Source: an uncultured Oscillospiraceae bacterium (GTDB lineage: Bacteria > Bacillota > Clostridia > Christensenellales > CAG-138). From it: a DNA stretch of 64,000 bases. Position numbers and translations under genes: made by a program. The stretch covers positions 25,381 through 89,380 of the forward strand of contig CAZBBX010000003.1 of assembly GCA_964490325.1 (NCBI GenBank). Reading direction: 5' to 3'. Of this stretch, positions 548 through 58,348 are shown piece after piece (positions within the stretch are counted from its first letter, which is position 1; each line of letters begins with the position of its first letter). The notes below the pieces were generated by a model that was not told where the DNA came from, made no database searches, and saw only the letters and a list, made by a program, of their open reading frames with translations.

Positions 548-659
548 GGAAACCTACAACATTGCTCTTTGCGCTGCGCCGTAATTTTTATGGCGCAGCT
601 TGCTATTTTGGCGAAAAACATGTAAGCTATGTCTAACTGTTGATAAGGATGAGAGATCG

Positions 660-1901
660 ATGAGAAAACGGATCATTGCTTGGGTTTGTACCCTTACTTT
701 ACTTTTCGCATCGGCAGGCGCCGCAAACGCTGCGTATGCTGTGGGGGACGTTGACGGAAACGGCAGCGTCAATGCGGCTGATGCGGCAAGTCTGCTTCGC
801 TGTACCGTAAAGCTGGAGACTTTGAGTGAGGACGCCTTGCAGGCAGCGGACGTCGATGGGAACGGCAAGGCGGACGCCGCCGATGCGGCACTGATCCTGC
901 GCTGGCTGGTGCGCCTTTGTAATCTGGACGGCTCTACGCCGTATCAAGATCCCACGCCAAGTCCCGATGCGACAGCTGCGCCCACCCAAACGGCAGAGCC
1001 TTCCCATACACCCCTGCCAAGCGCAGGCACCCAAACAGGCACGCTTGACATATACCTTATCGACGTAGGCTTTGGCGACTGCATTCTGCTCACCTCGCCC
1101 CACGGAAAGACGATGCTTGTGGACGCAAGCAACCTTGGAACGAACGATCATGGCGTAGCCGCCAAGACGCAGATCACCGAGCTTTTAAGCACTTTGGGCA
1201 TCACGCACTTTGATCTGGGCGTGTATTCCCATGCGCATTCCGATCATGTCAACGGCTTTATGGGCTTCCTCACAACGGATTACGGCTACGATGCGTTCGC
1301 GTTTCCTTCCGTACACAGCACGGGAAGCAGCGGCACCTACTCAAACATCACGACCTACCTCCAACAGCAGTCCGCGCTGATGAACTTCACCCTGTATCCC
1401 GTCGACACCTCATCGGACGCCACGGTGTTCACAAGCTGGGACAGCGATGTACAGATCGACGTCCTTTGGCCGCCTGCAGGCTATGAGACCTCCGATCCAA
1501 ACGAGACCAGCCTTGTCTTGCGCTTGGAGTACGATGGGTACAGCATACTGCTGACCGGGGACATCACAAGGGATGTGGAGAGCGAGCTGCTGCAGCTGTA
1601 CGATGCGGACACACTGGATATCGATGTACTGAAGATTGCGCACCATACATCCAACGGCAGTACGAGCGCGGAGTTTTTGAAGGCGACCACGCCCATCCTT
1701 GCCGTGGCTTCCGTGACGCAGTACTCCTATAACTGGCCCGGTGCAAGCACCGTAAGCCGTTTGATGGATGCGCACCTGTACTGGAGCACGACACAGCGCC
1801 CCACAGGCGGTCTGTACGGCACCTGCTATCACGGCAACATCCATGTGCGCATCGACGAGTACGGCGTAATGGTCGAGACCGAGTACAGCTATGCGGGCTG
1901 A
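660..1901 (+). CDS. secreted dockerin-containing MBL-fold metallo-hydrolase (ComEC-type beta-lactamase domain)
   Basis: ATG at 660 gives the signal peptide MRKRIIAWVCTLTLLFASAGAANA. Two DVDGNG dockerin segments follow, then a Pro/Thr linker. The MBL core is LDIYLIDVGFGDCILL...HAHSDHVNGF...IAHHTSNGS. Confidence 0.8.
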   Translation: MRKRIIAWVCTLTLLFASAGAANAAYAVGDVDGNGSVNAADAASLLRCTVKLETLSEDALQAADVDGNGKADAADAALILRWLVRLCNLDGSTPYQDPTPSPDATAAPTQTAEPSHTPLPSAGTQTGTLDIYLIDVGFGDCILLTSPHGKTMLVDASNLGTNDHGVAAKTQITELLSTLGITHFDLGVYSHAHSDHVNGFMGFLTTDYGYDAFAFPSVHSTGSSGTYSNITTYLQQQSALMNFTLYPVDTSSDATVFTSWDSDVQIDVLWPPAGYETSDPNETSLVLRLEYDGYSILLTGDITRDVESELLQLYDADTLDIDVLKIAHHTSNGSTSAEFLKATTPILAVASVTQYSYNWPGASTVSRLMDAHLYWSTTQRPTGGLYGTCYHGNIHVRIDEYGVMVETEYSYAG

Positions 1902-4461: not shown

Positions 4462-4775
4462 AAACCGCAACCTCACAACGGACAGTATTGCATTCTTAGG
4501 CTTCCTTTTTTAAAAGCTCCCTTACTATAGCAGAAAATGCAAGTTTTCGCAAGCATTCTTATGGCGAATTAAAGCGAAAATAGGAAAATTATGAACATAA
4601 ACACGAAGAAAGCACCGCTATCCTATTCGCATATATATGCATATCACATACATACATATATGATATATAATACCAGATAATTGATATAGTACAATTCTGT
4701 TCAAATTCAAACGATTTCTGCATTTTTTGACCCTTGTCGATAAAAATACTGTACAAATACAGTAAGGACAGTTTC
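4462..4775. promoter_or_regulatory. AT-rich divergent control region between the two regulator genes
   Basis: This roughly 300-bp stretch is far more AT-rich than its flanks. It contains the perfect palindrome GCATATATATGC (4629-4640) and a TA/CA alternating tract to about 4672. Confidence 0.5.
4747..4764 (+). promoter_or_regulatory. inverted repeat TACTGTA-N4-TACAGTA immediately upstream of the LytTR regulator RBS (operator candidate)
   Basis: A perfect 7-bp inverted repeat is followed by a further ACAGT copy (4768-4772). The AAGGA RBS and the ATG at 4776 come directly after. Confidence 0.4.
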
Positions 4776-5534
4776 ATGGATACACAGCAGGGGGGAAGCA
4801 ACGTGGCCAATGTATTACTCTGTGCAGAAGATCCTTTTCTCACATTATGGATCGACAAGGCTCTAAAGGAGCTGGATCCCGGCAGGATCAACATATGGGC
4901 TTTCAAAAACATGTTTGCCGCAAACGATTATCTGTCGGAGATCGCGTACGGGAATGTGGACATTCTCATCTTTGATCTGGACGACAAGGGTGAGAAGCGC
5001 GTGAATCCGCTTCGTGCAGTGATGGAAACAAAACGTAAGTTTCCGCTTCTGAAGATCATCCTTCTGTCTGCCCGTCTTGAGCTGGCAACGGATATCTTTG
5101 AAGCGGAGCCGTGCTACTTTTTGCTAAAGCCGCTTGAAAAGTCCTATCTGGCGCGTGCGATCCGCATGGCGCTCAAGCAGATCGAAGCGGACAAAAGCAA
5201 GGCGATCGCGCTGCCCACCAGAAAAGGGATCGCAAGGGTGCGCTATGACTGCATCAAGTATGTAGACTGCAAGGATCGCTGGCTGGTGGTGCATGAGCTG
5301 AGCGGGGATCACGAGATCAAAATGAAGATGAAGGAACTGGTCGCGTGTCTGCCGCCCCAGTTTTTGTGGTGCCACCAAAGCTTCCTTGTAAACATGGATC
5401 GGATCCATCTGCTGACCAAGGACGGCATCCGCCTGTACAGCGGGGAAAGCATACCCATCAGCAGAGCGCGCGTGGGCGAAGTTCGTAAACGCTTCCGCTC
5501 CTATTCCGCACAATTGCAGCCTTTCATCGAATGA
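4776..5534 (+). CDS. LytTR-family response regulator (orphan; no histidine kinase adjacent)
   Basis: The receiver domain has VLLCAEDPF...DILIFDLDD...LLSA...LLKP. The C-terminal LytTR domain is IARVRYDCIKYVDCKDRWLVVH...WCHQSFLVNMDRI...IPISRARV. The ATG at 4776 has an RBS; the track start at 4734 is a TTG. Confidence 0.8.
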   Translation: MDTQQGGSNVANVLLCAEDPFLTLWIDKALKELDPGRINIWAFKNMFAANDYLSEIAYGNVDILIFDLDDKGEKRVNPLRAVMETKRKFPLLKIILLSARLELATDIFEAEPCYFLLKPLEKSYLARAIRMALKQIEADKSKAIALPTRKGIARVRYDCIKYVDCKDRWLVVHELSGDHEIKMKMKELVACLPPQFLWCHQSFLVNMDRIHLLTKDGIRLYSGESIPISRARVGEVRKRFRSYSAQLQPFIE

Positions 5535-5650: not shown

Positions 5651-5815
5651 ATGAACGGTATCGACATAGATATCCGTGAGGCAAATGAATATCAAAAGAT
5701 TTGTATAGAGGCATACGCAGCGGATCGGTATAACGGTATAAACGCGGCTTGTGCCTTTTGCGCATTTCCAAGGCTCCCTTTTCGATCCTGCCGCCGAGCG
5801 GCGCTGTGCCTATGA
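5651..5815 (+). CDS. candidate 54-codon upstream ORF (below ORF-track cutoff), stop overlaps next gene start (ATGA)
   Basis: GGGAGGGG lies 4-5 nt before the ATG at 5651. It translates to MNGIDIDIREANEYQKICIEAYAADRYNGINAACAFCAFPRLPFRSCRRAALCL. Its TGA at 5813-5815 overlaps the ATG at 5812 of a gene that has no SD of its own. Third-position GC is low, which counts against it being coding. Confidence 0.25.
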   Translation: MNGIDIDIREANEYQKICIEAYAADRYNGINAACAFCAFPRLPFRSCRRAALCL

Positions 5816-7308
5816 AAAGGCTGCTGCGTTTGATCGCCTGCCTGCTGCTTTGCGCTTTGCTGCTTGCAGCTGCCCCGCAAAGAAGCGCACAGTCGGAAGG
5901 CGCCGCGATCCAAGCGGCCGCGCAGAATATCCTGTGCGTCAAAGCGTATTGGAACAGAGTCACCATCTTGGAAGCCGGCATCAACAAGGAAAGGGCCTAT
6001 ACCTTGGGCGAGGGCTTCCTTGTTGGGTCGATCGAGGCCGCCGATGGGTCGACGCAGGCCGTGCTTGTAACGAACGCGCACTGCATACTTGACTCCACTG
6101 ACGATGCAGGCGCAGCGGACAGGGTCGTTGTCCTTGCAGCTGCTGCGGAGATCAACGCAAGCGTCGCATACAGAAACGAAGACTGCGACCTTGCGATCCT
6201 GTATTTGGACGCAGCCCTGCTTACGCAGGAAGCGCTGCCCCTGCGCAGGGAGGAAGCAGCGCCAAACGAGCCTGTATATGCGCTGAGCTTTGCGGCACAG
6301 GAGTCAGAATGGCATAAGGTCGGTATCCCGGTCACGGTACCCGAAACGGAGATCACGGAGGGCGTGATCGAAAGCCTGACGCAAGCGACCGCCGCAGGGT
6401 CGAGCACCGCGAGGAGCGTGGATGCATACCTGCACAGCGCCAAGCCCGCAGCGGACGGAGGCGGTCCTCTTTTAGACGCGCAGGGTGCGGTCATAGGAGT
6501 AAATTTCACTACGACGGACGGATCCGTTGCAGCGGTACGCATCCAAGAGCTTTGCAGCGCATTGGATGCACTCGGCGTTTCCTACACGACGGTGCAGCAG
6601 ACGGCAAGCCCGCCGATCCCCACGCAGGAGCCAACGCCGACAGCCGCCGAGCAGGCGGAGACGGACGCGCTCGATCAAATACCGACTGACCCTCCACAGC
6701 AGTCTGCCTCCTCGGCCGAGATGACGCAGCAAGCACCGCTGCAAAGCGCCGACGGCGATCCTGCGCAGGAGGATCCGCACAGCACGGTATTAGTGATCCT
6801 TGTTTGCATAGCGGCGCTGCTGGCGGGCTTAAGCGTGAGCCTTATCCTCCTTTGGCAGGCGGATAAAAAGCGGCGGAAGGCCTTGCCTTCGACACGGAAC
6901 GCCGTACAGGCCGACAAAAGCGTCATTCCCTGCGATAAGACAGAGGATCCGAGCAATATAGATCCATTGGATAAAGCGCAGGCACAGAGCGTTCCAAATG
7001 AGGAGGAACAAGCGGAAGCCTATCTGGAGCGCATAAGCACGGGAGAAAGGCTTCCGATCACGGACAGTCCGTTTCGGATCGGTCGTGCGCTCAAGCACAG
7101 TGGCCGCAAGGGGCAGGCAAACGCGGCGATCTACCGAAGCCGCGCAAGCATTACCTATCGGGAGGGAGAGTACCTCCTTTCCGACGGCAAGACCGCAGAC
7201 CATACCTGCGTCAATGAAAAGGAGATCCACGGCAGAACGGAGCTGCCGATCGTACAGGGAGACGTCATCCGCATTGCGGGGGAAGAGTTCATCTTTACCG
7301 TTCGATAG
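5812..7308 (+). CDS. membrane protein: secreted trypsin-fold (S1C-like, Ser->Gly) domain - TM - cytoplasmic FHA-like domain
   Basis: The signal peptide is MKRLLRLIACLLLCALLLAAA. His (VTNAHCI) and Asp (DCDLAILY) of the triad are present, but the GNSGGPL box reads DGGGPLLDAQGAVIGVN. A Pro/Gln linker, a TM (VLVILVCIAALLAGLSVSLILLW) and a C-terminal FHA-like segment (FRIGR...YRSRASITY...VNEKEI...FIFTV) follow. Confidence 0.75.
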   Translation: MKRLLRLIACLLLCALLLAAAPQRSAQSEGAAIQAAAQNILCVKAYWNRVTILEAGINKERAYTLGEGFLVGSIEAADGSTQAVLVTNAHCILDSTDDAGAADRVVVLAAAAEINASVAYRNEDCDLAILYLDAALLTQEALPLRREEAAPNEPVYALSFAAQESEWHKVGIPVTVPETEITEGVIESLTQATAAGSSTARSVDAYLHSAKPAADGGGPLLDAQGAVIGVNFTTTDGSVAAVRIQELCSALDALGVSYTTVQQTASPPIPTQEPTPTAAEQAETDALDQIPTDPPQQSASSAEMTQQAPLQSADGDPAQEDPHSTVLVILVCIAALLAGLSVSLILLWQADKKRRKALPSTRNAVQADKSVIPCDKTEDPSNIDPLDKAQAQSVPNEEEQAEAYLERISTGERLPITDSPFRIGRALKHSGRKGQANAAIYRSRASITYREGEYLLSDGKTADHTCVNEKEIHGRTELPIVQGDVIRIAGEEFIFTVR

Positions 7309-7344: not shown

Positions 7345-8121
7345 ATGCGGTTTCTGTCGGCGGAGCATACAGATGTGGGGATCCGAAAGCAGGTCAATCA
7401 AGACGGTCTGCTGCTCAAGATCGTACAGTACGGCGATGAACAACTGGCGTTCGCGCTGCTTTGCGACGGTATGGGAGGTCTGTCCGATGGCGAGATCGCA
7501 AGCAACACCGTGCTTCGCGCCTTCCTCGATTGGTTCTCCGAAACGCTGCCTGCCATTTTGGAGGAGGGGCAGCTGACAAACGAGCGTATCAGCCGCGACT
7601 GGAGCCAAATCGCGCAAGCGCAGAACCAGCAGATCGGCCGTTATGCCGCGAAGCGCGGCATCCATATGGGAACGACGGCAACTGCGCTGCTGCTGGCCTT
7701 TGGCCACTACTATGTGATGAACGTGGGGGATACGCGGCTGTACCTGCTGCGCGACGGCGTGGAGCAGCTCACGGAGGATCAGACCTTTGTTGCAAGGGAG
7801 CTGGCGCAGGGCAGAATGACCAAGGAGCAGGCCGCTGCGGATCCAAGACGCAATGTGCTGCTGCAGTGCATCGGCGCATCCAACGAGGTAACTCCGGACT
7901 TTTTCTTCGGCGACTATCGGGAAGGCGACGCTTTTCTGCTGTGTACGGATGGCTTTCGGCATCTGTTGCGCAAGGAGGAGCTGCAACAAGCCTTTATGGG
8001 CGAAGACAGCAGCAGCGAGCAGAGCCTTAAGCAGCAGTGCGTAAGACTGACCGAGTTGAACAAGCAGCGCGGCGAGACCGACAACATAACGGCAGCGATC
8101 ATTAAGGCGGTGAGGGGCTGA
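7345..8121 (+). CDS. PP2C-family Ser/Thr protein phosphatase
   Basis: The motifs HTDVGIRKQVNQD, LLCDGMGG, NVGDTRLYL and GETDNITAAII are all present, and an RBS GGGGGAG lies upstream. Confidence 0.9.
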   Translation: MRFLSAEHTDVGIRKQVNQDGLLLKIVQYGDEQLAFALLCDGMGGLSDGEIASNTVLRAFLDWFSETLPAILEEGQLTNERISRDWSQIAQAQNQQIGRYAAKRGIHMGTTATALLLAFGHYYVMNVGDTRLYLLRDGVEQLTEDQTFVARELAQGRMTKEQAAADPRRNVLLQCIGASNEVTPDFFFGDYREGDAFLLCTDGFRHLLRKEELQQAFMGEDSSSEQSLKQQCVRLTELNKQRGETDNITAAIIKAVRG

Positions 8122-8122
8122 G

Positions 8123-9799
8123 ATGTTAGAGAACGGAACGATCATCGACGGGAAATATGAGATCCTGAGCAAGGTCGGGCAGGGCGGCATGAGCATCGTC
8201 TATTTGGCGCTGAACAGGAAGGCAAACAAGCAGTGGGCGATCAAGGAGGTCCGCAAGGACGGCGTTAAGGACTTTGAGCTTGTGCGGCAAAGCTTGGTCG
8301 TCGAAACGGACATGCTCAAGCGCTTGAGCCACCCCAACCTGCCCAGCATCGTGGACATCATCGATGAGGACGGACGCTTTTTGATCGTCATGGACTACAT
8401 CGAGGGCAAGCCGCTCAGCGCGATCCTAAAGGAGTATGGGCCGCAGCCGCAGTCCTATGTTCTGGAATGGGCCATTCAGCTTTGCGATGTGCTGGAATAC
8501 CTGCACACCCGCAAGCCTCCCATCATCTATCGGGATATGAAGCCGTCCAACGTCATGCTCAAGCCTGACGGCACGGTGGTGCTCATAGACTTTGGAACGG
8601 CACGGGAGTATAAGGAGCGGAATGTCGCCGACACGACCTGCCTTGGCACACTGGGCTATGCCGCACCCGAACAGTTTGGCGGCCATGGTCAGACCGACGC
8701 CCGCACGGACGTCTACTGCTTGGGCGCAACGCTGTACCATCTGCTGACGGGCAAAAGCCCCGCTGAGCCGCCATACCAGATCAAACCGATCCGCGAGTGG
8801 AATCCGCAGCTCTCCAAGGGACTGGAGGCGATCATCCTGCAATGCACGGAGCAGGATCCCAGGAAGCGTTTCCAAAGCTGTGCCGAGCTGAAATATGCGT
8901 TAGAGCATTCCGAAGAGTACGATGCGGCCTACCAAAAGCAGCAGCGTAAAAAAGCCGTAACCTTCCTTGTCACCATGGGCTTAAGCGTGCTGTGCGGCGT
9001 ATCCGCCGTGCTGTGCCTATTTGGTCGAAACACGATGCGTGACAAAAACTATCAGGCGCTGATCGAAGCGGGTGAATATAAGCAGGCTATTGCCATGAAG
9101 CCCGAAACGATGGACGCCTATGAGGCGATGATACGCTCCTTCAAGACGGACGGTGCGTTCACAACGGAGGAGGAGAGGCAGCTCAATTCGGTCATCACCG
9201 CATCCACAGGCGGCTCGGGCATGCAGGCCACGGATCACGATGCGCTCATCCGCGTGGGCAAGTATGATGAGCTGGCCTTTGAGATCGGTATCCTGTACAG
9301 CTGCTATTATCAATACGGCGGGCAGGAGACCACACCCCTTGTCTGCTCGGCGCCTTGGTTTCGCATTGCATCCGATGAGGTGTACGGCAACGACAAACGG
9401 GAATTGGCATACCTCTACTATCAGCTGGCCGCCATCTATGAGGATTCGAGCAACGCCATCATCGAGGGACGGGAAGCCGAGGACTATACAAAGGCGTGGA
9501 CGACCATGACCAAGATCGTGCAGTATCTAAAAACGGACAAAAGCATCGGTACGTATCTGCGCCTGCAGTTATACTACGCCGTGCAGTACAGCATCTATAA
9601 GGACGCAAGCAAGCTTGCACAATACTTGGAGCAGGGAGACGTCAACACGCTCCTCGGCGAAATGGAGACCGCCGTTAAGGCATTGGATCTGAAGGAAGAG
9701 GCCACGATCGCCGCCAAGGATCGCTTTATGCAGCAGCTGCCCAAGACCAAGGAAAGCATTACCGTAGCATACGGAAAGCAGGGGGTGAACAACGGATGA
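8123..9799 (+). CDS. Hanks-type Ser/Thr protein kinase with TM and non-PASTA extracellular domain
   Basis: Kinase motifs are GQGGMSIVY, WAIKEV, YRDMKPSN, DFGTA and GTLGYAAPE. A TM (AVTFLVTMGLSVLCGVSAVLCLF) and a roughly 250-aa ectodomain with no PASTA repeats follow. The start is 1 nt after the phosphatase stop. Confidence 0.9.
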   Translation: MLENGTIIDGKYEILSKVGQGGMSIVYLALNRKANKQWAIKEVRKDGVKDFELVRQSLVVETDMLKRLSHPNLPSIVDIIDEDGRFLIVMDYIEGKPLSAILKEYGPQPQSYVLEWAIQLCDVLEYLHTRKPPIIYRDMKPSNVMLKPDGTVVLIDFGTAREYKERNVADTTCLGTLGYAAPEQFGGHGQTDARTDVYCLGATLYHLLTGKSPAEPPYQIKPIREWNPQLSKGLEAIILQCTEQDPRKRFQSCAELKYALEHSEEYDAAYQKQQRKKAVTFLVTMGLSVLCGVSAVLCLFGRNTMRDKNYQALIEAGEYKQAIAMKPETMDAYEAMIRSFKTDGAFTTEEERQLNSVITASTGGSGMQATDHDALIRVGKYDELAFEIGILYSCYYQYGGQETTPLVCSAPWFRIASDEVYGNDKRELAYLYYQLAAIYEDSSNAIIEGREAEDYTKAWTTMTKIVQYLKTDKSIGTYLRLQLYYAVQYSIYKDASKLAQYLEQGDVNTLLGEMETAVKALDLKEEATIAAKDRFMQQLPKTKESITVAYGKQGVNNG

Positions 9800-10530
9800 G
9801 CGCCGAAGCATTGCTGTCTCTGTACAATACCCTATTTATTCTGTGCCTCATACTGTGCGGCGCCTTCCTTATACTAAGCGTCTGCCTGTTCTTTTTCAAC
9901 AAGGTGGGGCAGGCGTTCAAGTTTTTGTCGGGCAGATCGGCAGCCAAGGCCATCGACAAGATCACCAGTGACAGCCGCATGATGGAACGTTCGCACGCGG
10001 CGAACCCCGAGGCGAACTCACGCCGCCTGAAGGGCGGTAACAGCGGTCGGATCGGCGGAAACAGCGGTCGGATCGACAGGCCGAACGTGGCGGGCTATTT
10101 CCAAAAGGCGGGGACGAATGCGGGGGAACGCGTTCAAGCGCCGGTAAAGCCGATCGCCCCGCAGGGCGAGGGAACGTATCCACCGCGCACAAAGCAGCCG
10201 ATCGCGCAGGGCGGGGAGGACGATGCGACTTGGAGCCTGCAGCAAGCGCCGCAAAGACCCGTGCAGCAACGGGACAACGCCGATACCATGCCGCTCCTAT
10301 CTAAAAACGTCTCGGCCGCGCCAAAGGAAGAAGGAGCAAGCGCCGTGGCAGGCTTGAAGGCGGTCATATCGCAAGCGCCGCCGAAGCCCCAAACAGGACC
10401 CGTGCATACGGCAGGGGCGGCAGGTGAGACGAGCGTCTTGGAAGAAAAAGGGGACGCACAGGAAAAGAAAAAGGGCTTTGTGTCCGTCAAGGACGTGCTG
10501 CTCACGGGAACGGAGGAACGGATCCCATGA
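9796..10530 (+). CDS. single-pass membrane protein with Pro/Gly/Gln-rich disordered tail
   Basis: Its start forms an ATGA overlap with the kinase stop. It has an N-terminal TM (LFILCLILCGAFLILSVCLFFF) and a low-complexity remainder. GC3-rich codons support coding. Confidence 0.65.
   Translation: MSAEALLSLYNTLFILCLILCGAFLILSVCLFFFNKVGQAFKFLSGRSAAKAIDKITSDSRMMERSHAANPEANSRRLKGGNSGRIGGNSGRIDRPNVAGYFQKAGTNAGERVQAPVKPIAPQGEGTYPPRTKQPIAQGGEDDATWSLQQAPQRPVQQRDNADTMPLLSKNVSAAPKEEGASAVAGLKAVISQAPPKPQTGPVHTAGAAGETSVLEEKGDAQEKKKGFVSVKDVLLTGTEERIP
10033..10074 (+). repeat. perfect-register 21-bp tandem duplication (2 copies, 1 mismatch) encoding GGNSGRI GGNSGRI
   Basis: GGCGGTAACAGCGGTCGGATC is directly followed by GGCGGAAACAGCGGTCGGATC. 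Confidence 0.9.
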
Positions 10531-11021
10531 CAAAGGGAGTAAAGCGGATCGGCGTAAAGGCGTGCCGAATTTGGTTTTTCTTAAGCGTACTCTGCCTGCT
10601 GCTCTCCTCGGCAGCCGTCATTTTGATCCCCTTTGTGACCTTTGATCAAACAAAGGGCAAGCCGCTTTACGCCTACCTCACAGGCGCGGCGATCTGGGGA
10701 TTTATGCTGCTCGGCTACGGACTGTTCATCGGGCTGGCCTGCGCAACAAAGCAACATCGCAAAAAGGGCGACAAGACCTGGGGCATTTTCCGCGTATTTT
10801 CAAACCCGGAGGCGACCGCGGCGGATCTACTGCTCCTGCTGAGCCTGATCGCCTTCGTACTGCTGTGTGTGCTGCGGTATCAAAACAGCTTACTCGTGTG
10901 CAGCACGCTTGCTGTCCTTCTGCTTTCACTGCACCTGCATGGGCTGCTGAACGGAAGGGTCTATCAAAGCATTCGCACAAGACCCATATTAAACCGTCAA
11001 TCGCATAAAAAAGAACAATAA
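10527..11021 (+). CDS. four-TM membrane protein, unknown function
   Basis: Its start forms an ATGA overlap with the upstream gene. It has four hydrophobic segments and a basic C-terminus. Confidence 0.65.
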   Translation: MTKGVKRIGVKACRIWFFLSVLCLLLSSAAVILIPFVTFDQTKGKPLYAYLTGAAIWGFMLLGYGLFIGLACATKQHRKKGDKTWGIFRVFSNPEATAADLLLLLSLIAFVLLCVLRYQNSLLVCSTLAVLLLSLHLHGLLNGRVYQSIRTRPILNRQSHKKEQ

Positions 11022-11050: not shown

Positions 11051-14000
11051 ATGAAAGCTTCTTCAAACTGGGTCAGGTTGACCGCATGGCTGCTGGTACT
11101 GCTGCTTTGCGCCTGCCTGTTGCCGATCGATCGAACGGCTGAGGCGGCGGAGGGCGAAACGCATCGGGTAGCATTTGAGTGCAATTACTACGGGGAATAC
11201 AGAGGACCTGCCCTCACGTACACGGAGGGAACAGAATTGCAGCTGCCAAGCGCAGACAACGTTGTAAATGTACATGATAAGATGGAATTCACGGGTTGGT
11301 CGTTGAACAACGCTGTGATAACCGCCATCCCCGCGGACTATACAGTGGAACCCGGCGCACAGATAAAGATCGTTGCCACATGGAAGATCACGGCGGATGT
11401 GTTCACAAGTACCTATGATGGCAGCTGGACGAACAAAGCAATCGAGTTCCAAGCGGATAACGGCTTTATGATCAATCCTTCCTCCTATTTCGACGAAGGA
11501 GAGAAAGATCTCGTGATTAAACAGGACGTAATATATGCCCCGACAACGGTCGAAGACCGAAAGAGCAGCGTCCATGTCAAGATCGACCGGACCGCTCCCG
11601 ATATCAGCTGCGATGCGATCGATGGATGGAATACGGAGGCTGTAGACGTCACATTTACTGTTACGGATGCGCTTTCCGGCGTTGCAGAGGTAAAGGTGGA
11701 TGATGCTGTCGTTGAGAAAAACGATGCAAATGAATACTCGTTTACCGCAAATTTCCCCGGGGAAACGAGCTATACGATCACAGCAACGGATCTTGCAGGA
11801 AACGTAAAAACGCAAATAGTTCATGCTGCGTACGATCCGACCGAGGCGATACTGTCCATGGAAACACAGGAAGAGTGGACGAATGCTGAGAGCGTAAAGG
11901 TAGAAGTCAATCTGAGCGAGAAACCCTACAGCGGCGTTAGCGGCACTTGGAGGCGCGGCAGCGAAGAGGGAGAGCTCGAATTTTCGGGTGAGCATGGCGA
12001 GTGCAAGGCAAGCTTCTTTGTCACGGAAGAAGGAAGCATGGACGCGGAAGCCGAGGTCGAGACAGGCGCAGGCAAAAAGTATTCCGCAGCTGCCGCCGTC
12101 ATGATCGACAGAACAAAGCCTGTCATCAGCGCCGCAGCTTCCACGCAGCCCAATGCAAATGGCTGGTACAGCACGGCGCCCACCATTGAGGTAACGGCAA
12201 GCGATACCCCCGCAGAAGGGGTGACGGAATGCAGCGGCGTCGGCAAGATCGAGTTCACGGCAAACGTGGATCTGAGCGGTCATTGGGACGAGCTGGTTCT
12301 GACCGATCCAAAGTTCACGGCGAACAGGGAGGGCGTGCAGACCTACACCGTGCGTGCGGCGGACAAGGCAAATAACAGCGCGAGCACCACTGTTACGATC
12401 AAGCTGGACAGCGCCGTTCCAAAGATCAAGGTCACACCGTCTGAGACTACATGGACAAGCGGGGCAGTCGAGCTAACGGTCAAGCTCACGGAAAGCATGA
12501 TCAGCGGAAACGCGATCAATGGGACATATACCTATACGAAGCGTGACGGCAGCTTAGGCGGCGGAACATTCGTACTGGACGAGATGGGAGAAGCAACGAT
12601 CACCATCGATGAGGAATGCAACACGGATGTATGCTTCACCGTAACATCCAATGCAGGCGTCTCATCGGAGCAGGCCGCTGCAAAGGTGCAGATCGACCGC
12701 ACGGCTCCCGTCATCGACAGCATAACGATCGATGATGAGATCTTCACCATGGTGGGCGCGGTGTTCACCTTTAACACCATCATTACGCCGGACAGCTATC
12801 TGGCCATCGAGGCGCACGACGAGTGGGGCGAATTGGATCATGCGGAGCTGACCATAACAGGCGAACGGGATGGGGACGCCTATCCGCAGACCCGCAGCGC
12901 CGACTTTATCATGGTGCAGCATGTCCTGACGGCGACCTTCAAAGTCGACACGGATATCACGGGAACCTTCTGCTTTACAGCCTGCGATAAGGCAAACAAC
13001 AGCACGGCCTCCGCGAACAAGGAGAATATCGTGGCGGAGAGCTCCAACGCCGCACTGACGATCTCTACACCGATATGGAGGGACAGCCTTGAGGAATATG
13101 ACGGCGATCCTACAAAGACCGCCGCGGACTATCTTGTCGTCACCCTATCGGGACAGGCCTATTCCGGCATCAAAGAATACCTTTGGAGCAGCGAAGAGGG
13201 AGGGGCGTTTGTACCGCTGACGACGCTTGCGGAGAATAACGGGGATCCGTACTTCTACTCCGTGACCGTGGCGGGAGAGTCGAGCGACGAGTTCATCACG
13301 ACCGTTCCCTCTGTGACCATCACGTTCTGCATTCTCAAGGAGGCGAAGACCTTCTACTTTAAGACGATCAGCAACGCGGGACATGAATCGAGCGTACAAA
13401 GCGTCACGGTCCCTGCGGACGGTATCGCGCCTGTGGTAACGCTGGATTGGAGCGAGACCCATACCGCCGAGAGCACGGGCTTTGCGTACTACAACGCCGC
13501 AAGAACGCTGACGATCACGGTACAGGAGCACAACTTCGATCCCGAATCCTCCACGCTCAGCTTTACGGGGATGGATCAAAAGACAGGTGACGCAATCACC
13601 GCTTCCACGCTGAACTGGCAGCCTGTGGAGACCAGAGGCCCAAGCGATACGCTGAAGACCTATCGAGCCGAGTATACCTTTGGCGAGGGCGAATACACAG
13701 ATGTAGCCGTCAACGTTACGGATCTTGCGGGAAATTCTTGGACGCCGCAGCAGATCCGTCAGTTCATCGTTGACACGACCGCACCGATCATCAGCTTCGT
13801 GGAGACGACGGCCGTCGACGACGAGCCTGTGCCGCTGGGTGAAACCAACTACTACCATGCCGTTCGCAGCTATGTGATCGAGGTGGAGGATGCGAACTTC
13901 GATCCCTTTGCCGCTGCCGAAGGCTCCATGGTCAACGGAAAGTGGCAGCAGCTGACGGCAAGCTTCTTGGACGGCAGCACTGCGCCTGTAGAGGAGAGCT

Positions 14001-16012
14001 GGACAAAGGTCGAGGGCAAGCGCAACAGCTATCGCTGCAGCCTCAGCTTTGCCGAAGGCCGCTATATGGACGGCATTCGCTTGCAGCTGTACGATTATGC
14101 AACGAATGCTTCCAACATCTTGGAGGACAAGACGCCCTTCATCGTGGACATGACGGCGCCCAAGATCGCGATCAGCAGCGTCACTTCATCGCACCTTGCC
14201 GCGTTCAACGGCACTGAGACCTATTTCCATGCGCTGCCCTCGCTGGGCGTAACGGTCACCATCACCGACAATGTCTCGGGCGTGGGCTATGGCACGGTGC
14301 TGTCCCCTGCGGTCAGATACACCACGGCAAACACGGACGTCTTTACGGAAACTGCGCTTACGGAGAGCGATCCTCAGGCAAAGGTGGATATCTCCATCTC
14401 GGTTGCCGAGAACGCCTTGGGCAAGATCCTTGCAAACGCTTGGGACTGGAGCGGCATTCAGGCAACGCAGGCGGAGACGGCACAGTTTACCGTTGACAAC
14501 ACGACCCCCAGATGCACCGTAACGTTCAACGATGCATACGGCGAACACGACGGCAAGGATTACTACGGCAAGACGGAGGGTGAGATCACCATCTCCGTCA
14601 CGATCGAGGAGGTATTCTTTGATCAATCCAAGATCGAGCAGTCCCTGCAGCTGAACAACGGCGGCAGTGGCAAGCTGCTGTATTTCACGAACGACAGCAA
14701 CTGCCACTACGCCAAGATCACCCTCACGGACGATGGCGACTATCGTCTGTTCCTCAAGTATGTCGACTTTGCAGGGCATGCCTTAGCGGATTACGCATCG
14801 AACGTGAAGGTGCTGGACACCGTTGCACCAACGATCCGCATCACGGGTGTGAGCGACCGCACGGCGTATGCGGGAGACTGCACGCCAATCGTCACCTGCT
14901 TTGACAGGAACATGAACGAAGGCGCACTCAAGATCCTCTTCTCGGGCAAGAATCGCGGCGAGCTGACCCCAAGCGGCAGCTATACGAGCTATTCCGGCAC
15001 GGAGGCAGCGCATTTTGGTGCGGTGACGGGCAAGGTGTTCACCTTCGATCCCTTTGCCGATACCCGCGAGAACGACGACGTGTACACCCTGTCGGCCTCC
15101 TGCACGGACTATGCGGGCAACACGACCGATACGAGCAACACCCCTGCAACAACGCAGCTGAGCTTCTCCCTAAACCGCAACGGTTCCGTGTTCTACTACG
15201 AGAAGGAGTCCGAGGCGATCAATGGGACATACATCAATCAGGAGCAAACGCTGCTGCTGCACGAGATCAACGTGACCGACATTGAAACGACCAAGATCCT
15301 TGTTACGGGTTCGCTTAACAGCAGCGAGCTGACGGACGGCAATGGGTATGCGATGGAGGATCGCAGCGAAGCGGATGGCTGGAAGGAATATGTCTACAGC
15401 ATTAAGGACACCAACTTCACCAAGGAGGACAGCTATCAGGTCGTGGCGCGTTCCGAGGACGTGACCGAGCTGATCTATGAGAGTACCGATGAAGGACGCG
15501 GCGCAGAGCTTGACGCGGCAGGCAACGTGCTTGCCGAGGACAAGGGCGCAGACATGAATTTCACCGTTGACAAGACAGCGCCGCTGCTGATGTACATCGA
15601 CCTGTCCGATCAAAGCGATGAGAACCGTTCGCAGGGCGACAGCCGCATGGTACAGTTCCGCGTAAAGGACGACTGCAAGCTGGAGAAGATCATGCTGACG
15701 ATCAACGGGGAGACGCAGATCTTTACCGCGGATTCTCCCGAGATCACAGGCCAGTCCGCAAGGGAGTGGGAGCTGAGCTTCAACCTGAACGAGAGCAACA
15801 ACTGGCAGACCATCAACGTATCCATCAGCGATGCAGCAGGCAATACAAGCACCCTGATGCAGTATAAGGCACTGGTCACCAACAACGTTCTGGTGCAGTA
15901 CTTCTACAACAAGCCTCTGTTCTACGGGTCGATCGCAGGCGTTGTGGTGATCCTTGCTGCAGCCGCATGGATCGTCACAGCCCGCAAAAAGGCCAAGAAA
16001 GCAAAGGCATAA
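11051..16012 (+). CDS. 1,653-aa cell-surface Ig-like-domain repeat protein with C-terminal TM anchor
   Basis: An RBS AAAGGAGGG and the signal peptide MKASSNWVRLTAWLLVLLLCACLL open the gene. The N-terminus has a Listeria-Bacteroides-type repeat (VAFECN...FTGWSL). About 10 module boundaries carry a (I/V)D-x-T-A-P-x-I motif (KIDRTAPDI, MIDRTKPVI, QIDRTAPVI, VDTTAPII, VDMTAPKI, LDTVAPTI, VDKTAPLL and others). The C-terminus is a hydrophobic helix plus RKKAKKAKA. Confidence 0.85.
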   Translation: MKASSNWVRLTAWLLVLLLCACLLPIDRTAEAAEGETHRVAFECNYYGEYRGPALTYTEGTELQLPSADNVVNVHDKMEFTGWSLNNAVITAIPADYTVEPGAQIKIVATWKITADVFTSTYDGSWTNKAIEFQADNGFMINPSSYFDEGEKDLVIKQDVIYAPTTVEDRKSSVHVKIDRTAPDISCDAIDGWNTEAVDVTFTVTDALSGVAEVKVDDAVVEKNDANEYSFTANFPGETSYTITATDLAGNVKTQIVHAAYDPTEAILSMETQEEWTNAESVKVEVNLSEKPYSGVSGTWRRGSEEGELEFSGEHGECKASFFVTEEGSMDAEAEVETGAGKKYSAAAAVMIDRTKPVISAAASTQPNANGWYSTAPTIEVTASDTPAEGVTECSGVGKIEFTANVDLSGHWDELVLTDPKFTANREGVQTYTVRAADKANNSASTTVTIKLDSAVPKIKVTPSETTWTSGAVELTVKLTESMISGNAINGTYTYTKRDGSLGGGTFVLDEMGEATITIDEECNTDVCFTVTSNAGVSSEQAAAKVQIDRTAPVIDSITIDDEIFTMVGAVFTFNTIITPDSYLAIEAHDEWGELDHAELTITGERDGDAYPQTRSADFIMVQHVLTATFKVDTDITGTFCFTACDKANNSTASANKENIVAESSNAALTISTPIWRDSLEEYDGDPTKTAADYLVVTLSGQAYSGIKEYLWSSEEGGAFVPLTTLAENNGDPYFYSVTVAGESSDEFITTVPSVTITFCILKEAKTFYFKTISNAGHESSVQSVTVPADGIAPVVTLDWSETHTAESTGFAYYNAARTLTITVQEHNFDPESSTLSFTGMDQKTGDAITASTLNWQPVETRGPSDTLKTYRAEYTFGEGEYTDVAVNVTDLAGNSWTPQQIRQFIVDTTAPIISFVETTAVDDEPVPLGETNYYHAVRSYVIEVEDANFDPFAAAEGSMVNGKWQQLTASFLDGSTAPVEESWTKVEGKRNSYRCSLSFAEGRYMDGIRLQLYDYATNASNILEDKTPFIVDMTAPKIAISSVTSSHLAAFNGTETYFHALPSLGVTVTITDNVSGVGYGTVLSPAVRYTTANTDVFTETALTESDPQAKVDISISVAENALGKILANAWDWSGIQATQAETAQFTVDNTTPRCTVTFNDAYGEHDGKDYYGKTEGEITISVTIEEVFFDQSKIEQSLQLNNGGSGKLLYFTNDSNCHYAKITLTDDGDYRLFLKYVDFAGHALADYASNVKVLDTVAPTIRITGVSDRTAYAGDCTPIVTCFDRNMNEGALKILFSGKNRGELTPSGSYTSYSGTEAAHFGAVTGKVFTFDPFADTRENDDVYTLSASCTDYAGNTTDTSNTPATTQLSFSLNRNGSVFYYEKESEAINGTYINQEQTLLLHEINVTDIETTKILVTGSLNSSELTDGNGYAMEDRSEADGWKEYVYSIKDTNFTKEDSYQVVARSEDVTELIYESTDEGRGAELDAAGNVLAEDKGADMNFTVDKTAPLLMYIDLSDQSDENRSQGDSRMVQFRVKDDCKLEKIMLTINGETQIFTADSPEITGQSAREWELSFNLNESNNWQTINVSISDAAGNTSTLMQYKALVTNNVLVQYFYNKPLFYGSIAGVVVILAAAAWIVTARKKAKKAKA

Positions 16013-16071: not shown

Positions 16072-18915
16072 ATGATGGAAAGCCAACAGAACAAAGAAAG
16101 CAGGCAACAGCTGTGCATTGCGGCTGTGCAAAAACCGTTGGCAGGCGCCCTGCTTCTCGCCTTTACGGGCGCATGGGCAGCGATGCTGTGCATAAGCGAA
16201 AACGGCTTGGAAGCGGTCAATCTTTGCATAAGCGGCGCTCCCTCTTTCCTGTTCTTGGCGGTTCTGCTGCTGTCCTCCTTTTTAGAGGGGAGGGCAAAGC
16301 GCCTGACGCTCTCAATTGCACTGCTCCTTCCCTTCGGCCTTAATGTCCTCTATTTCATTTATCGCATGCTTGCCGCGGCACAACAGGGTGAATTTGCAGC
16401 CTTGTCCGCATATGCCGCGCCTGCTGCCTCCTTTGCGGCGTGCTTCATGGGCATAGCCGTATTGGTATCAAATCGCACGGGTACGCGCTTGCTGGCCTGC
16501 ATGGCTGCGGCGTTTGCACTTACGGCACAGCTGCTGCGGTGGATGGACGCCGCGCCTTCCGTCACGCTCATCTTGGAGAGCGGCATGACGATCCTCTTTG
16601 TGACGGGTGTTCTTGCCGTTGCGATCAATACACGTTCCATAAAGCGCTTAAAGCGCGTACAAATCAAACGGCGACTGACCATAGCGGACTGTCAACTGGA
16701 TCTGGCGCGGCACAGCCTGCGCCTGTTCCTGAGCTTCGGCGTTTGGCGTATGATCTGGACCTATCGCATGACGCGTTGCTTTTATGTCGGAGCGCGGCAG
16801 GGAAAGAAGGCGGGCGGAACGATCCTGCTGTACCTGTTTGTGCCCTTCTACGCCGTATACTGGAATTATCGTCTGGCAAAGATCTTGGATCAAACAAAGC
16901 AAGAGCTTGGCTTTGCGGGCAGGAGTGCCTTAAGCTGCCTGCTGCTGACGCTGTTTGGCTGCGGCGGCATAGCCACCATACTCCTGCAGGACTCCGTGAA
17001 CGCCATAGCGGAGCGTAAGCTGTTCGAGGACACGCGGCTGCTGGCTCGGGCAAGCACACTTTTGCAGTTTGGGGACGCGCCCGTGCTGATCGGGGAACGC
17101 TGCGTGCGCAAGGATCGTTCCAAACGAACGGTCTTTGGGACGGCGCGCCTTCTGCCCATCGGCAAACGAAAGCTGCTTTCCGTTCGCTTTGACATCATCG
17201 GCAAGGACGCGGCAGGCGCGGAAGTGGAGACGCAGCGCGGCGTCACCTTTGCTGACTTTACGGAGGACGAGCAAACAGACGGCGGCTGCCAAATGAAGTT
17301 TCCCTTCTCCGATTCGACGGTGCGAAGCTTTTCCATCCGTCCCGTTGAAGCGCTTTATGGATCGGGAGCCGAATGGAAGGGCGGGGACGCTGTTTGCACG
17401 GTCCTTGCTGCGCAGAAACGTCTGGAAGCGGACGGTCGTTCGGAAGCGCTCGTGCGCCGCTATCGGCAGGCACTGTATGCACGCTGCCCCAACTGTGACG
17501 CCGTCTTTGCACCAACGGAGTACGGCGAGCTGCTGGCGTGCAGCTGCGGCGGCATAGGCGAACGCAGCGAACGCTGTCCCTGCTGCGACACGCCGCTTGC
17601 GATCCAATGGGAGCTGTACAAAAAAGACGCATTGGAAGAGGCACAGCAGGCGGAACGGGAACGCAAAAGCGTCGCAAAGGAGCCCCTCCGCAAGGGCTTC
17701 GGACTGGGCATGGCAAGCGTACTGCTGCTGGCGTTACTGGTGTTCTCCCTGTCCTATGCGCTGCCCGAGCTGAAGCTGTTGCAGGCGAAGCAGCTGTATG
17801 ACGAAGGGGAATATGCAAAGGCGCGGGAAAGCTTTGTCATTATGAGCGGCTATACAGGCAGCAACGAATATGTCAACGCCTGTGATTATGCCACAGCGGC
17901 CGCCTTGGAGGAGCAGGGCGATACGGCTGCTGCCGCAAGCCTGTTCGCCTCGTTAAACGGCTACAAGGACAGCGCGGCGCGCAGCAGCAAGCTTGACGCG
18001 GGAGCGGCATATGACTATGCGGTGGCCTGCTATCGGCGCGGCGCGTATCGGGACGCCATCACCGCGTTAGAACCCTTGGAGCGGGACGCCTATTCCGATG
18101 CAGACTACCTGTATCAGCTTTCGCATCTTGGCGTCATCCAACAACTTTTAGAGCAGGAGGAGCTGCAAAAGGCTATGGAGCTGGGGGAGAGCTGCGCTAA
18201 AAAGCTGTATTGGCAGCCCGATGGCGAACTGATGCAGATGTATACGCAGCTGTTGTCCGCCTATTTATCGGATAAAGCGGACTGGTCGGAGAAGCTGATC
18301 CTGTGGGACTACTTTGATATGTCGGATCAAAAGGGACAGTACAGCAGGGAGCTGTTTGCCCGCTCCGAACTGTTTCGCGACGGAGATCTGTACGGCCTGC
18401 GCCTCACGGAGGGCAGAATACAGCCCTGCATCCTGCAAGCGGCAGAATATGCAAAGATCGTGCTTATAGAGGGAGCGGACTACGCTATCGTGTCCGTCAA
18501 CGGCGTCCTCATGGGAACCATGCTTGCGGATGGGAGCTTCCGCATTGCGCCGCTGTTTTCGGAGTATCGCAGGATCGATGACAACTACTATCGCATCTCG
18601 CATGACGGCAAGTACGGCGTGATGAGCAAGGACGGACAGCTTGTGCTTCCCCAAGTCTACGACGAGCTTGCCCTGCTGCACTCCTATGCGGACAAACGCC
18701 TTGTTTGGATACGCGAAGGCGAACTGTGGGGCGTCTACGACCTGCACAAGCAAAAGGTGACGGTGACGCCGCAGTTTAGCACACTGCCCGAAGCCTACCT
18801 GTATGATAATAACGGTGCAGTGGTCGCCGATGGCACATATGCATTGCTGGACGGACAGCTGGTTAATGATGAGGGAGAGGCCGTTCCCCTGCCAAGCACA
18901 GCGCCGACCGCCTGA
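16072..18915 (+). CDS. 947-aa polytopic membrane protein: N-terminal multi-TM block, DUF4234-like segment, Cys4 zinc-ribbon, TM, helical-repeat region, C-terminal WG-type repeats
   Basis: It has at least 6 N-terminal hydrophobic helices. FVPFYAVYWNYRLAKILD resembles DUF4234. CPNCDAVF...CSCGG...CPCCDTPL is zinc-ribbon-like. The C-terminus carries WG-type repeats (KYGVMSKDGQLVLPQVYDEL, LWGVYDLHKQKVTVTPQFS). Confidence 0.7.
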   Translation: MMESQQNKESRQQLCIAAVQKPLAGALLLAFTGAWAAMLCISENGLEAVNLCISGAPSFLFLAVLLLSSFLEGRAKRLTLSIALLLPFGLNVLYFIYRMLAAAQQGEFAALSAYAAPAASFAACFMGIAVLVSNRTGTRLLACMAAAFALTAQLLRWMDAAPSVTLILESGMTILFVTGVLAVAINTRSIKRLKRVQIKRRLTIADCQLDLARHSLRLFLSFGVWRMIWTYRMTRCFYVGARQGKKAGGTILLYLFVPFYAVYWNYRLAKILDQTKQELGFAGRSALSCLLLTLFGCGGIATILLQDSVNAIAERKLFEDTRLLARASTLLQFGDAPVLIGERCVRKDRSKRTVFGTARLLPIGKRKLLSVRFDIIGKDAAGAEVETQRGVTFADFTEDEQTDGGCQMKFPFSDSTVRSFSIRPVEALYGSGAEWKGGDAVCTVLAAQKRLEADGRSEALVRRYRQALYARCPNCDAVFAPTEYGELLACSCGGIGERSERCPCCDTPLAIQWELYKKDALEEAQQAERERKSVAKEPLRKGFGLGMASVLLLALLVFSLSYALPELKLLQAKQLYDEGEYAKARESFVIMSGYTGSNEYVNACDYATAAALEEQGDTAAAASLFASLNGYKDSAARSSKLDAGAAYDYAVACYRRGAYRDAITALEPLERDAYSDADYLYQLSHLGVIQQLLEQEELQKAMELGESCAKKLYWQPDGELMQMYTQLLSAYLSDKADWSEKLILWDYFDMSDQKGQYSRELFARSELFRDGDLYGLRLTEGRIQPCILQAAEYAKIVLIEGADYAIVSVNGVLMGTMLADGSFRIAPLFSEYRRIDDNYYRISHDGKYGVMSKDGQLVLPQVYDELALLHSYADKRLVWIREGELWGVYDLHKQKVTVTPQFSTLPEAYLYDNNGAVVADGTYALLDGQLVNDEGEAVPLPSTAPTA

Positions 18916-20091: not shown

Positions 20092-20110
20092 AACATCCTC
20101 CTTGCGTGTC

Positions 20111-20139
20111 ATTATACTACAACGCTCCCCCTTCGTCAA
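20111..20139 (-). promoter_or_regulatory. near-consensus sigma-A promoter of the sortase gene
   Basis: The minus strand reads TTGACG-17 nt-TATAAT, about 20 nt upstream of the RBS and ATG. Confidence 0.65.
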
Positions 20140-20217: not shown

Positions 20218-20775
20218 ATGCCTATATTTGTCCATGGCTCCGAAAAGGATAAGCTGACCATCCTATATTTCATTCGCTCCTTCTCCGAAGGCATCACGCA
20301 GGAGCAGCTGTACCACGCCATTTACACCTGCGGCTGCATGGAGTACTTTGCGTATTCACAGGCGATCTCCGAGCTGGAGGAGGACGGCTATCTGGCCGTT
20401 GTTCCCTGCAGCTTCGGGCAATGCTACCATCTGTCCGCGCAGGGCTCCGACACCTTGGAAATGTTTCAAAAGAGCCTGCCGATCTCCCTTAGAAAGGAAC
20501 TGGACGAGTATGTCCAGTTAAATCGCGACGCCATTCGCCGCGAAATGCAGATCGTTACGGGCATGGAGGAGCTGAAGGGCGGGGGGTATTTGGTGACCCT
20601 CACCGTCGCCGAGAAGACGAACCTTGTGTTGGAGATCAAACTGTCGCTGTCCTCAAAGGAGCAGGCGTTGACGATGCGCGCCAACTGGGAGGAGCACTGC
20701 TCCGACCTGTACGATCATATTTGGGACACGCTCTTGACTTCCAAGAACGCAACGCCCAAAGAGGAAACGCCCTAG
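20218..20775 (+). CDS. DUF4364-family putative transcriptional regulator
   Basis: AAGGAGG RBS. The N-terminus (KDKLTILYFIRSFSEGITQEQLYHAIYTCGCMEYFAYSQAISELEEDGYL) resembles the DUF4364 winged-helix family common in Clostridia. Confidence 0.55.
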   Translation: MPIFVHGSEKDKLTILYFIRSFSEGITQEQLYHAIYTCGCMEYFAYSQAISELEEDGYLAVVPCSFGQCYHLSAQGSDTLEMFQKSLPISLRKELDEYVQLNRDAIRREMQIVTGMEELKGGGYLVTLTVAEKTNLVLEIKLSLSSKEQALTMRANWEEHCSDLYDHIWDTLLTSKNATPKEETP

Positions 20776-58307: not shown

Positions 58308-58348
58308 ATCCGTCCATCAAAAGCGATTCTTGAAGGGAGTATTTGGAG

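Follow-up and report, generated by a model that had tools for sequence, protein, structure and literature searches.

The described systems that come closest to the protein analysed here are the HtrA-type serine proteases on the one hand and the FHA proteins that partner Hanks-type Ser/Thr kinases on the other. The protein, called the window protein in the following, is encoded at 5812–7308 (+) in a stretch of 64,000 nucleotides from an uncultured Oscillospiraceae bacterium (contig CAZBBX010000003.1, positions 25,381 to 89,380). This stretch is the window to which all coordinates refer unless another locus is named. The open reading frame (ORF) is intact from ATG 5812 to the stop codon at 7306–7308, and its product of 498 amino acids (aa) consists, in this order, of a signal peptide, an HtrA/S1C-like trypsin-fold ectodomain, a disordered linker, a single transmembrane helix, and a C-terminal FHA fold. 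With moderate confidence, we regard it as a membrane protein that is retained although it is no longer catalytic and has been deprived of its probable phospho-acceptor sites and of a canonical pocket for phospho-Thr.

With HtrA, DegP, DegS, and MarP (MEROPS S1C), the window protein shares the chymotrypsin fold, a recognisable GGPL..G..IG.N core, and equally recognisable boxes around His and Asp, and DegS and MarP are likewise extracytoplasmic and membrane-tethered. In contrast to these proteases, it has no nucleophile Ser, an Ala in place of a Gly of the nucleophile box, and no PDZ domain, and its tether is a C-terminal transmembrane helix that runs into a cytoplasmic FHA fold. Dead eukaryotic S1 folds with a Ser to Gly exchange that are used for binding include azurocidin (heparin-binding protein) and arthropod homologues like masquerade. 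The window protein resembles them in having Gly at the nucleophile position of a retained trypsin fold, but lineage and context are unrelated, and these homologues are secreted soluble proteins without transmembrane helix, FHA domain, or kinase link. In MamO of magnetotactic bacteria, a repurposed HtrA-family pseudoprotease, the nucleophile is replaced by Thr, metal is bound through two His residues (a di-His motif), and a TauE transporter is fused to the protein (PMC4794232). MamO parallels the window protein as a bacterial HtrA-family domain that is retained without catalysis, and in both cases pseudoproteases arose repeatedly within one family; however, nothing in the window protein suggests metal binding, and it is linked to a Ser/Thr kinase module.

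On the FHA side, the actinobacterial gene order is fhaA-fhaB-pstP-rodA-pbpA-pknA-pknB, in which FhaA and FhaB (FipA) partner Hanks kinases, and in GarA and OdhI an ETTS motif forms a self-binding switch with the FHA domain. The position of FHA genes directly upstream of genes for a PP2C phosphatase and a Hanks kinase is common to the actinobacterial cluster and the locus described here, and the GETxVL motifs found beside the FHA domain in the family of the window protein resemble the ETTS-plus-FHA switch. The window protein differs from FhaA, FhaB, GarA, and OdhI in the loss of the Thr motifs and of three residues of the FHA signature, and its extracellular protease fold has no counterpart in these proteins. 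Phospho-Thr binding depends critically on the signature motifs GR, SxxH, and NG, and MxiG-N, which has an FHA fold without the full motif set, does not bind phospho-Thr (PMC3162421). MxiG/YscD-type proteins set a precedent for an FHA fold that does not read phospho-Thr within a single-pass membrane protein (PMC3162421), and members of our family score weakly on Pfam Yop-YscD_cpl; their FHA domain, however, is N-terminal and not C-terminal, the window protein has no secretion-system context, and its degeneracy is recent and specific to one lineage inside an otherwise canonical family. A protein that combines trypsin-family and FHA domains, NP_811686.1 of Bacteroides thetaiotaomicron, appears among the prokaryotic serine proteases surveyed in 2008 (PMC2605481). 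Set side by side by description, its order is FHA-FHA-trypsin and that of the window protein is trypsin-transmembrane-FHA, and the phylum differs. Full-text literature searches for the trypsin-transmembrane-FHA architecture and for the ETTVL motif yielded no experimental description; the 2008 survey was all that they turned up.

The architecture was delimited with an AlphaFold2 model of the full-length protein, generated from a 57-sequence family alignment (mean predicted local distance difference test score, pLDDT, 76.9), which was confident at aa 40–260 and 401–498 and disordered at aa 281–323 and 351–396. The N-terminus (MKRLLRLIACLLLCALLLAAAP...) is that of a typical signal peptide, assigned to aa 1–28 (MKRLLRLIACLLLCALLLAAAPQRSAQS; 5812–5895, +) by reading of the sequence, by a modelled helix at aa 2–19, and by alignment with the N-terminus of the closest relative, P0008; the putative cleavage site lies at its end. 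The trypsin/HtrA-fold ectodomain (aa 40–260; 5929–6591, +), which is supported by Pfam Trypsin_2, a pLDDT mostly above 85, and Foldseek, is followed by an extracellular linker rich in P, T, Q, and A (aa 261–324; 6592–6783, +; pLDDT 36–53). The only transmembrane helix (aa 325–348; 6784–6855, +; modelled helix aa 324–349) is a hydrophobic stretch directly followed by the positively charged QADKKRRK. According to the positive-inside rule, the FHA side should therefore be cytoplasmic, so that the predicted topology has the protease fold outside and the FHA fold inside. A juxtamembrane segment (aa 349–400; 6856–7011, +), which in the family alignment has neither of the two GETxVL motifs, leads to the FHA-fold domain (aa 401–498; 7012–7305, +), which is defined by Pfam FHA, the alignment to EmbR, and AlphaFold2 with Foldseek. 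This layout agrees with a preliminary description of this DNA, made from the sequence alone, which had proposed a trypsin-fold ectodomain connected through one transmembrane segment to an FHA-like domain.

Family counts given in the following refer to an alignment of the window protein with 149 other listed representatives (n = 150). They stem from HMMER run exhaustively against 1.84 billion representatives, which yielded 151 proteins at E <= 1e-10.

The assignment of the ectodomain to the chymotrypsin/trypsin double beta-barrel of the S1C type is based on Pfam Trypsin_2, which matched aa 67–230 (E 8.7e-15), and on the AlphaFold2 model, for which Deg1, DegS, MarP/Rv3671c, and HtrA1 were the best Foldseek matches (E 7e-11 to 6e-9). 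The NCBIfam HtrA and MarP models scored 17–27 bits, with cut-offs of 250–800. A PDZ domain was found in neither the Pfam nor the NCBIfam scan, and the ectodomain leads into the disordered linker and the transmembrane helix. His90 (CAC, in VTNAHC; 6079–6081, +) and Asp126 (GAC, in DCDLAIL; 6187–6189, +) occupy the catalytic columns, in which 135/150 and 141/150 representatives have His and Asp, respectively. In phmmer alignments to the solved Deg1, HtrA1, and HhoA structures, 'paADGGGPLLDaqGavIGvN' pairs with 'GNSGGPLLD..G..IGIN', which places Gly216 (GGA, 6457–6459) in the nucleophile column. In the same alignments to solved HtrA/Deg chains, A214-D215-G216 (GCG GAC GGA; 6451–6459, +) replaces the G-N-S of the family, and the oxyanion Gly, the first of the GNSGG box and at least 90% conserved in the family, has become Ala214. 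The complete His-Asp-Ser triad with a G-N-S-G-G-P box is thus absent. The two retained triad residues and the Ser to Gly exchange had been named in the preliminary description, which had suggested an HtrA/DegP alignment as a check; this alignment confirms the exchange. As there is no nucleophile Ser, the ectodomain cannot be a conventional serine protease and, as had been proposed, it would be catalytically dead.

The exchange cannot be ascribed to a sequencing error, because independent assemblies share it and GGA is at least two changes away from the Ser codons. All seven members of the 90%-identity cluster have ADGGGP, and so do five assemblies from different samples (L001, L002, L047, L048, and L049) with 93–100% DNA identity; the relatives use TCN codons for the Ser, and GGA differs from every Ser codon by two or more bases. 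A strain mutation was likewise rejected, since all strain variants are invariant at this position. The preliminary description had taken a Ser retained in orthologues as a possible sign of such a mutation or error. The outcome of this check is mixed: the orthologue and 133/150 representatives do have a G-N/S-S-G-G-P box, but Gly is fixed across all sampled strains, and together with the many accompanying changes this fixation indicates an old, lineage-specific loss.

The FHA domain has kept its fold and little of its signature. Pfam FHA matched aa 437–488 with 20.5 bits, marginally below the cut-off of 20.7, and P0008 reached 52.1 bits. A separate AlphaFold2 model of aa 397–498 (pLDDT 80, predicted template-modelling score, pTM, 0.71) matched the FHA domain of EmbR in Foldseek with template-modelling scores of 0.75–0.76, and further matches were OdhI, GarA, FhaA, and DgcB. 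In agreement with this beta-sandwich, phmmer aligned the window FHA domain with EmbR (E 9e-4). P0008 and the solved FHA domain of EmbR both align with it without gaps, which sets the register. From the six residues of the signature GR, SxxH, and NG, just the G-R (G424-R425) survives. The SxxH site, located before strand 5, reads Y441-R442-S443-R444, with the phosphate-binding Ser exchanged to Tyr and the His to Arg, and the NG site before strand 7, in which Asn is the critical residue, reads D463-H464, as had been noticed before; T461 and N468 are kept. The preliminary description had counted both G-R and S-R as retained, which is correct for G-R, whereas the S-R it had in view (S443-R444) is shifted by two residues from the canonical site. 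At the SxxH and NG sites, Ser is kept in 126/150, His in 147/150, and Asn in 138/150 family representatives; the second NG position is variable (G, F, H, C, Y). Asp at the first position occurs only in the window protein, which is also the only full-length representative that deviates at Ser, His, and Asn together. Judged by these residues, the window FHA domain would be without canonical phospho-Thr binding. The losses extend to the juxtamembrane segment, where a crude GETxVL pattern has no hit in the window protein and at least one in 120/150 representatives; the family Thr columns of the two motifs are occupied by Ile383 and Gln392.

The parent family of this protein is an uncharacterised Clostridial one, which comprises at least 150 clusters at 50% identity. 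Most representatives have 480–600 aa and match across the trypsin and FHA parts, and the common layout (signal peptide, S1C trypsin domain, linker, one transmembrane helix, two GETxVL motifs, and FHA domain; about 500–600 aa) is also that of the window protein, as seen in its full-length alignment to P0008 and many representatives, save for the GETxVL motifs. The family FHA consensus is canonical (GK/GR, SRxH, TNG). It is preceded by one to three, usually two, G-E/D-T-x-V-L motifs (P0008–P0156, loci L003–L020), and the combination of a double motif with an FHA domain is also found in non-protease FHA proteins upstream of PP2C-kinase genes in other Clostridia. By analogy with the ETTS-plus-FHA switch of GarA and OdhI, with which the Foldseek matches of the FHA model agree, the motifs are probably kinase target sites. 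Gly in the nucleophile column is confined to the window protein. Fifteen other full-length representatives also have no nucleophile Ser (P0024, P0026, P0053, P0057, P0062, P0091, P0092, P0097, P0120, P0129, P0132, P0138, P0147, P0151, and P0155); they have A, C, L, Y, I, E, V, or K instead, often with the His lost too, and all 15 keep a canonical FHA domain (S-R-x-H, N). As about 10% of the representatives lack the Ser, catalysis was lost repeatedly in this family.

Of the 56 family columns with at least 80% conservation, 16 are mismatched in the window protein and only one in its sister P0008. Among the 16 are G214A and S216G of the nucleophile box, G159S and P161A of ALGFP, the Thr and Leu columns of both TxVL motifs, and S441Y, H444R, and N463D of the FHA domain. 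The window protein is also less similar than P0008 to 139 of 147 other representatives in the ectodomain and to 144 of 146 in the FHA domain, a relative-rate comparison which shows that its branch is the accelerated one. A scan of genome contigs with the window protein found no relative, and a scan of metagenome contigs with an alignment of P0001 and P0008 found only relatives with 29–30% identity. In a word-indexed protein search, the full-length query retrieved its own cluster only, the family profile mostly generic HtrA proteins, and the ectodomain nothing, itself included; as this search missed even its query, the lack of relatives with 40–90% identity is weak evidence of absence.

P0008, the closest relative (500 aa, about 37–40% identity over the full length, E 2.7e-82), is canonical, with GSSGGP, GETSVL and GATTVL, SRSHA, and TNH. 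By gene content, the window belongs to a Clostridia chromosome, and the locus nearest to it is the following one. A 91%-identical copy of P0008, with the Ser codon TCC, is encoded in a metagenome-assembled genome (MAG) of an uncultured Christensenella (L003), in the order LytTR, FHA1, protease-transmembrane-FHA, and PP2C. The window has the same order save FHA1, and the identities between the two loci are 53% for LytTR, 66% for PP2C, and 37–40% for the protease-FHA gene. In L003, FHA1 is a soluble FHA protein of 297 aa (1719–2612 in that locus; Pfam FHA E 3e-10), the gene of which lies between the LytTR and protease-FHA genes, and a soluble FHA gene also precedes the protease-FHA gene in L004, L005, L007, L009, L011, and L014. 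In the window, this place is taken by a 54-codon ORF (5651–5815, +), a 5' remnant of the soluble FHA gene that is recognisable by its ribosome-binding site and its first ~17 codons (MNGIDIDIREANEYQKI vs MSGIELDMRTLEILQKL). The distance between the LytTR and protease-FHA genes is 277 nt in the window and 1051 nt in L003, which suggests a deletion of about 775 nt in the lineage of the window. No other copy of the soluble FHA gene was found within the 64-kb window, and an intact paralogue in the window was likewise rejected by tblastn with five family members. No Shine-Dalgarno sequence was found before ATG 5812; the 54-codon ORF has a strong one, and its stop codon overlaps this ATG (ATGA). A scan for promoters and terminators gave counts at shuffle level.

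The signalling enzymes next to the gene are not affected by these losses. As the preliminary description had stated, a phosphatase and a kinase are encoded next door. The PP2C Ser/Thr phosphatase gene (7345–8121, +; Pfam PP2C_2, NCBIfam Stp1/IreP-type, E 4.8e-51) starts 36 nt downstream and has intact DGMGG, GDTR, TDG, and DN motifs, and the following Hanks-type Ser/Thr kinase gene (8123–9799, +; Pfam Pkinase E 1.4e-46) has intact G-loop, AIK, YRDMKPSN, DFG, and APE motifs, with a kinase domain 72–73% identical to the kinases of related loci. Since the motifs of kinase and phosphatase are intact while the FHA features were lost, it was specifically the FHA arm that was dismantled. The family gene is situated directly upstream of PP2C and Hanks kinase genes in the window and in L003, L004, L005, L007, L008, L009, L011, and L014, and an FHA-containing gene has this position in more than 20 Clostridial loci. 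Upstream of the module lies the gene of a LytTR DNA-binding protein (4734–5534, +; Pfam LytTR E 5.5e-14, Response_reg E 0.063), as is also the case in L003, L011, and L014.

Within the species, the gene has stayed open and its folded parts are under constraint. Five assemblies with up to ~6.5% DNA difference all have an intact ORF. Nei-Gojobori counts were tested against the ~75% nonsynonymous changes that are expected under neutrality. In comparison to L048/L049, there were 7 nonsynonymous and 10 synonymous changes in the whole gene (p = 0.003) and 5 and 9 in the ectodomain (p = 0.002), and in comparison to L047, 6 and 8 in the transmembrane, juxtamembrane, and FHA part (p = 0.008). The linker had 11 nonsynonymous and 4 synonymous changes relative to L047 (ratio 0.87, p = 0.5), which is about neutral. 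This pattern of constrained folded domains and an unconstrained linker argues against a freely decaying pseudogene. L047 (contig ERZ4240422 NODE_232075) is the most divergent variant, with 93% DNA identity; its gene seems to be split into two ORFs, which we rejected as a sign of a pseudogene, as the break consists of a scaffolding run of N and an adjoining 29-nt insertion at 2x coverage. The synonymous divergence (pS) to L048/L049 is 0.045 in the ectodomain segment (5812–6597), 0.017 in LytTR, and 0.006 in PP2C; this several-fold excess in the ectodomain segment may stem from recombination or from an allele of greater age.

The persistence of the window protein as a non-enzymatic membrane protein is the most likely explanation, because both folds have been kept under purifying selection. 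The ancestor would have been a single-pass signalling protein with an extracellular S1C/HtrA-like protease, a transmembrane helix, two GETxVL motifs, and an FHA domain. Its FHA arm would then have been taken apart: the soluble FHA gene shrank to the 54-codon stub, and the threonines of the TxVL motifs and the Ser, His, and Asn of the pocket disappeared. In the protease, Gly would have replaced the nucleophile Ser, and the GNSGG box would have lost its first Gly. What is left would be an HtrA-fold ectodomain that binds, but does not cleave, a polypeptide or envelope ligand, and an FHA fold that makes a phospho-independent contact or one of altered specificity. Of this, the architecture, the motif losses relative to family and orthologue, and the nonsynonymous deficit are direct observations, and so are the deleted upstream FHA gene and the intact state of kinase and phosphatase.

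Several points weigh against this explanation. The loss of catalysis and of phospho-Thr binding is deduced from residues, and with R425, R442, and T461 still in the pocket, and R444 and the hydroxyl of a Tyr newly there, some phosphate binding in an altered mode is possible. Each comparison in the selection test rests on 14–17 substitutions, and since their variants are identical, L048 and L049 are not independent. Outside the species, even the nearest relative has only ~40% identity, which leaves the succession and the dating of the losses poorly constrained. The check for paralogues spans 64 kb, and an intact paralogue elsewhere would change the interpretation. Finally, a gene that is about to disappear would likewise be expected to have all its functional motifs lost together.

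This last point leads to the strongest competitor, a functionless relic, i.e., a decaying family member that makes no contribution to the cell and whose ORF has just not been disrupted yet. It would account for the loss of all family-defining functional motifs in three separate modules, for a branch that is markedly accelerated relative to the sister protein and the neighbouring genes, for the adjacent FHA gene that is already deleted, and for the missing Shine-Dalgarno sequence before ATG 5812. However, a relic should not have an intact ORF in five assemblies as divergent as observed, nor significantly fewer nonsynonymous changes than expected in its ectodomain and its transmembrane/FHA part while the linker drifts. 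AlphaFold2 also models both domains with high confidence, and the ATGA overlap with the stub, which has the strong Shine-Dalgarno sequence, would allow coupled translation. We therefore judge a relic to be unlikely, albeit a serious contender.

The preliminary description had gone further than a dead protease and proposed a ligand sensor wired to a phospho-Thr-reading FHA domain, which would constitute an outside-in adaptor; the FHA domain would then have to be functional and dock on targets of the kinase and phosphatase. Layout and operon position are as described there, the folded domains are under purifying selection, and G-R, R442, T461, and N468 remain, with R444 adding positive charge. 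The combination of a dead protease with a live FHA domain also exists in the family, as the other Ser-less representatives demonstrate. For the window protein itself, this wiring is quite improbable. The FHA residues replaced are near-invariant, and no other full-length representative is changed at all three; both GETxVL motifs are gone, the partner FHA gene is deleted, and the FHA fold of MxiG, which is also without the full motif set, did not bind phospho-Thr (PMC3162421). Since the 15 other Ser-less representatives keep a canonical FHA domain, the proposed model may fit them better than the window protein. In comparison, a protease that is still active, either with another residue as the nucleophile (His90 and Asp126 are kept, and Cys91 and Cys125 adjoin them in sequence) or because the Gly is an assembly or sequencing artefact, is highly improbable, as independent assemblies from different samples have the same GGA codon, at least two substitutions from any Ser codon, the box is altered beyond the Ser (GNS to ADG), the conserved G159 and P161 of ALGFP are changed, and every profile and structure alignment sets Gly216 in the nucleophile column.

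Some additional features of the locus and its surroundings are worth recording. The Hanks kinase has a transmembrane helix at ~aa 279–300, no PASTA repeats, and an extracellular domain of ~250 aa without Pfam match, which is conserved over its full length in L004 and L005 (41–45% identity). The LytTR protein has a weak receiver-like N-terminus and may be an atypical regulator under kinase control. The kinase gene is followed on the same strand by genes of two small membrane or disordered proteins without family matches (9796–11021, +; 244 and 164 aa), of a 1653-aa protein with bacterial Ig-like domains (11051–16012, +), to which weak similarity is found near the module in L005 and L008, and of a 947-aa protein with WG repeat (16072–18915, +). 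A sortase gene lies at 19063–20139 (-). Type I dockerin proteins are encoded at 600–1901 (+) and 58343–60772 (+), one of them fused to a metallo-beta-lactamase fold, which points to a Clostridial organism of the cellulosome type. A cluster of the D-ornithine/lysine aminomutase type (20772–27246, -), with a B12-binding aminomutase, a MutL-like reactivase, a pyridoxal phosphate (PLP) enzyme, and an alanine-racemase-like protein, indicates amino-acid fermentation.

For annotation, the consequence is that the gene should be named neither a serine protease nor a phospho-Thr-binding protein. Pseudoproteases and non-canonical FHA folds are each known, and here both are joined in one polypeptide. Together with its orthologue from the Christensenella MAG, the window protein forms a natural before-and-after pair for asking what a Clostridial protein of this architecture does and which activities are dispensable. 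More valuable still is the parent family, which emerged as a by-product and in which a Hanks kinase and a PP2C phosphatase would be linked to an extracellular HtrA-type protease via a GarA-like module of Thr motif plus FHA domain. In a speculative and rather unlikely reading, this family may be a transmembrane device that ties the phosphorylation of GETxVL motifs by the Hanks kinase to the assembly or activity of the extracellular protease, and the window protein would be a natural allele in which everything is dead and which is still kept by selection. Either the FHA domain of the same protein or the partner FHA protein would recognise the phosphorylated motif, and the device would give inside-out control of surface proteolysis, or the reverse. 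If this is true, the window protein would reveal a scaffold role of the family that needs neither catalysis nor phospho-Thr recognition, such as the docking of the kinase or of a surface partner.

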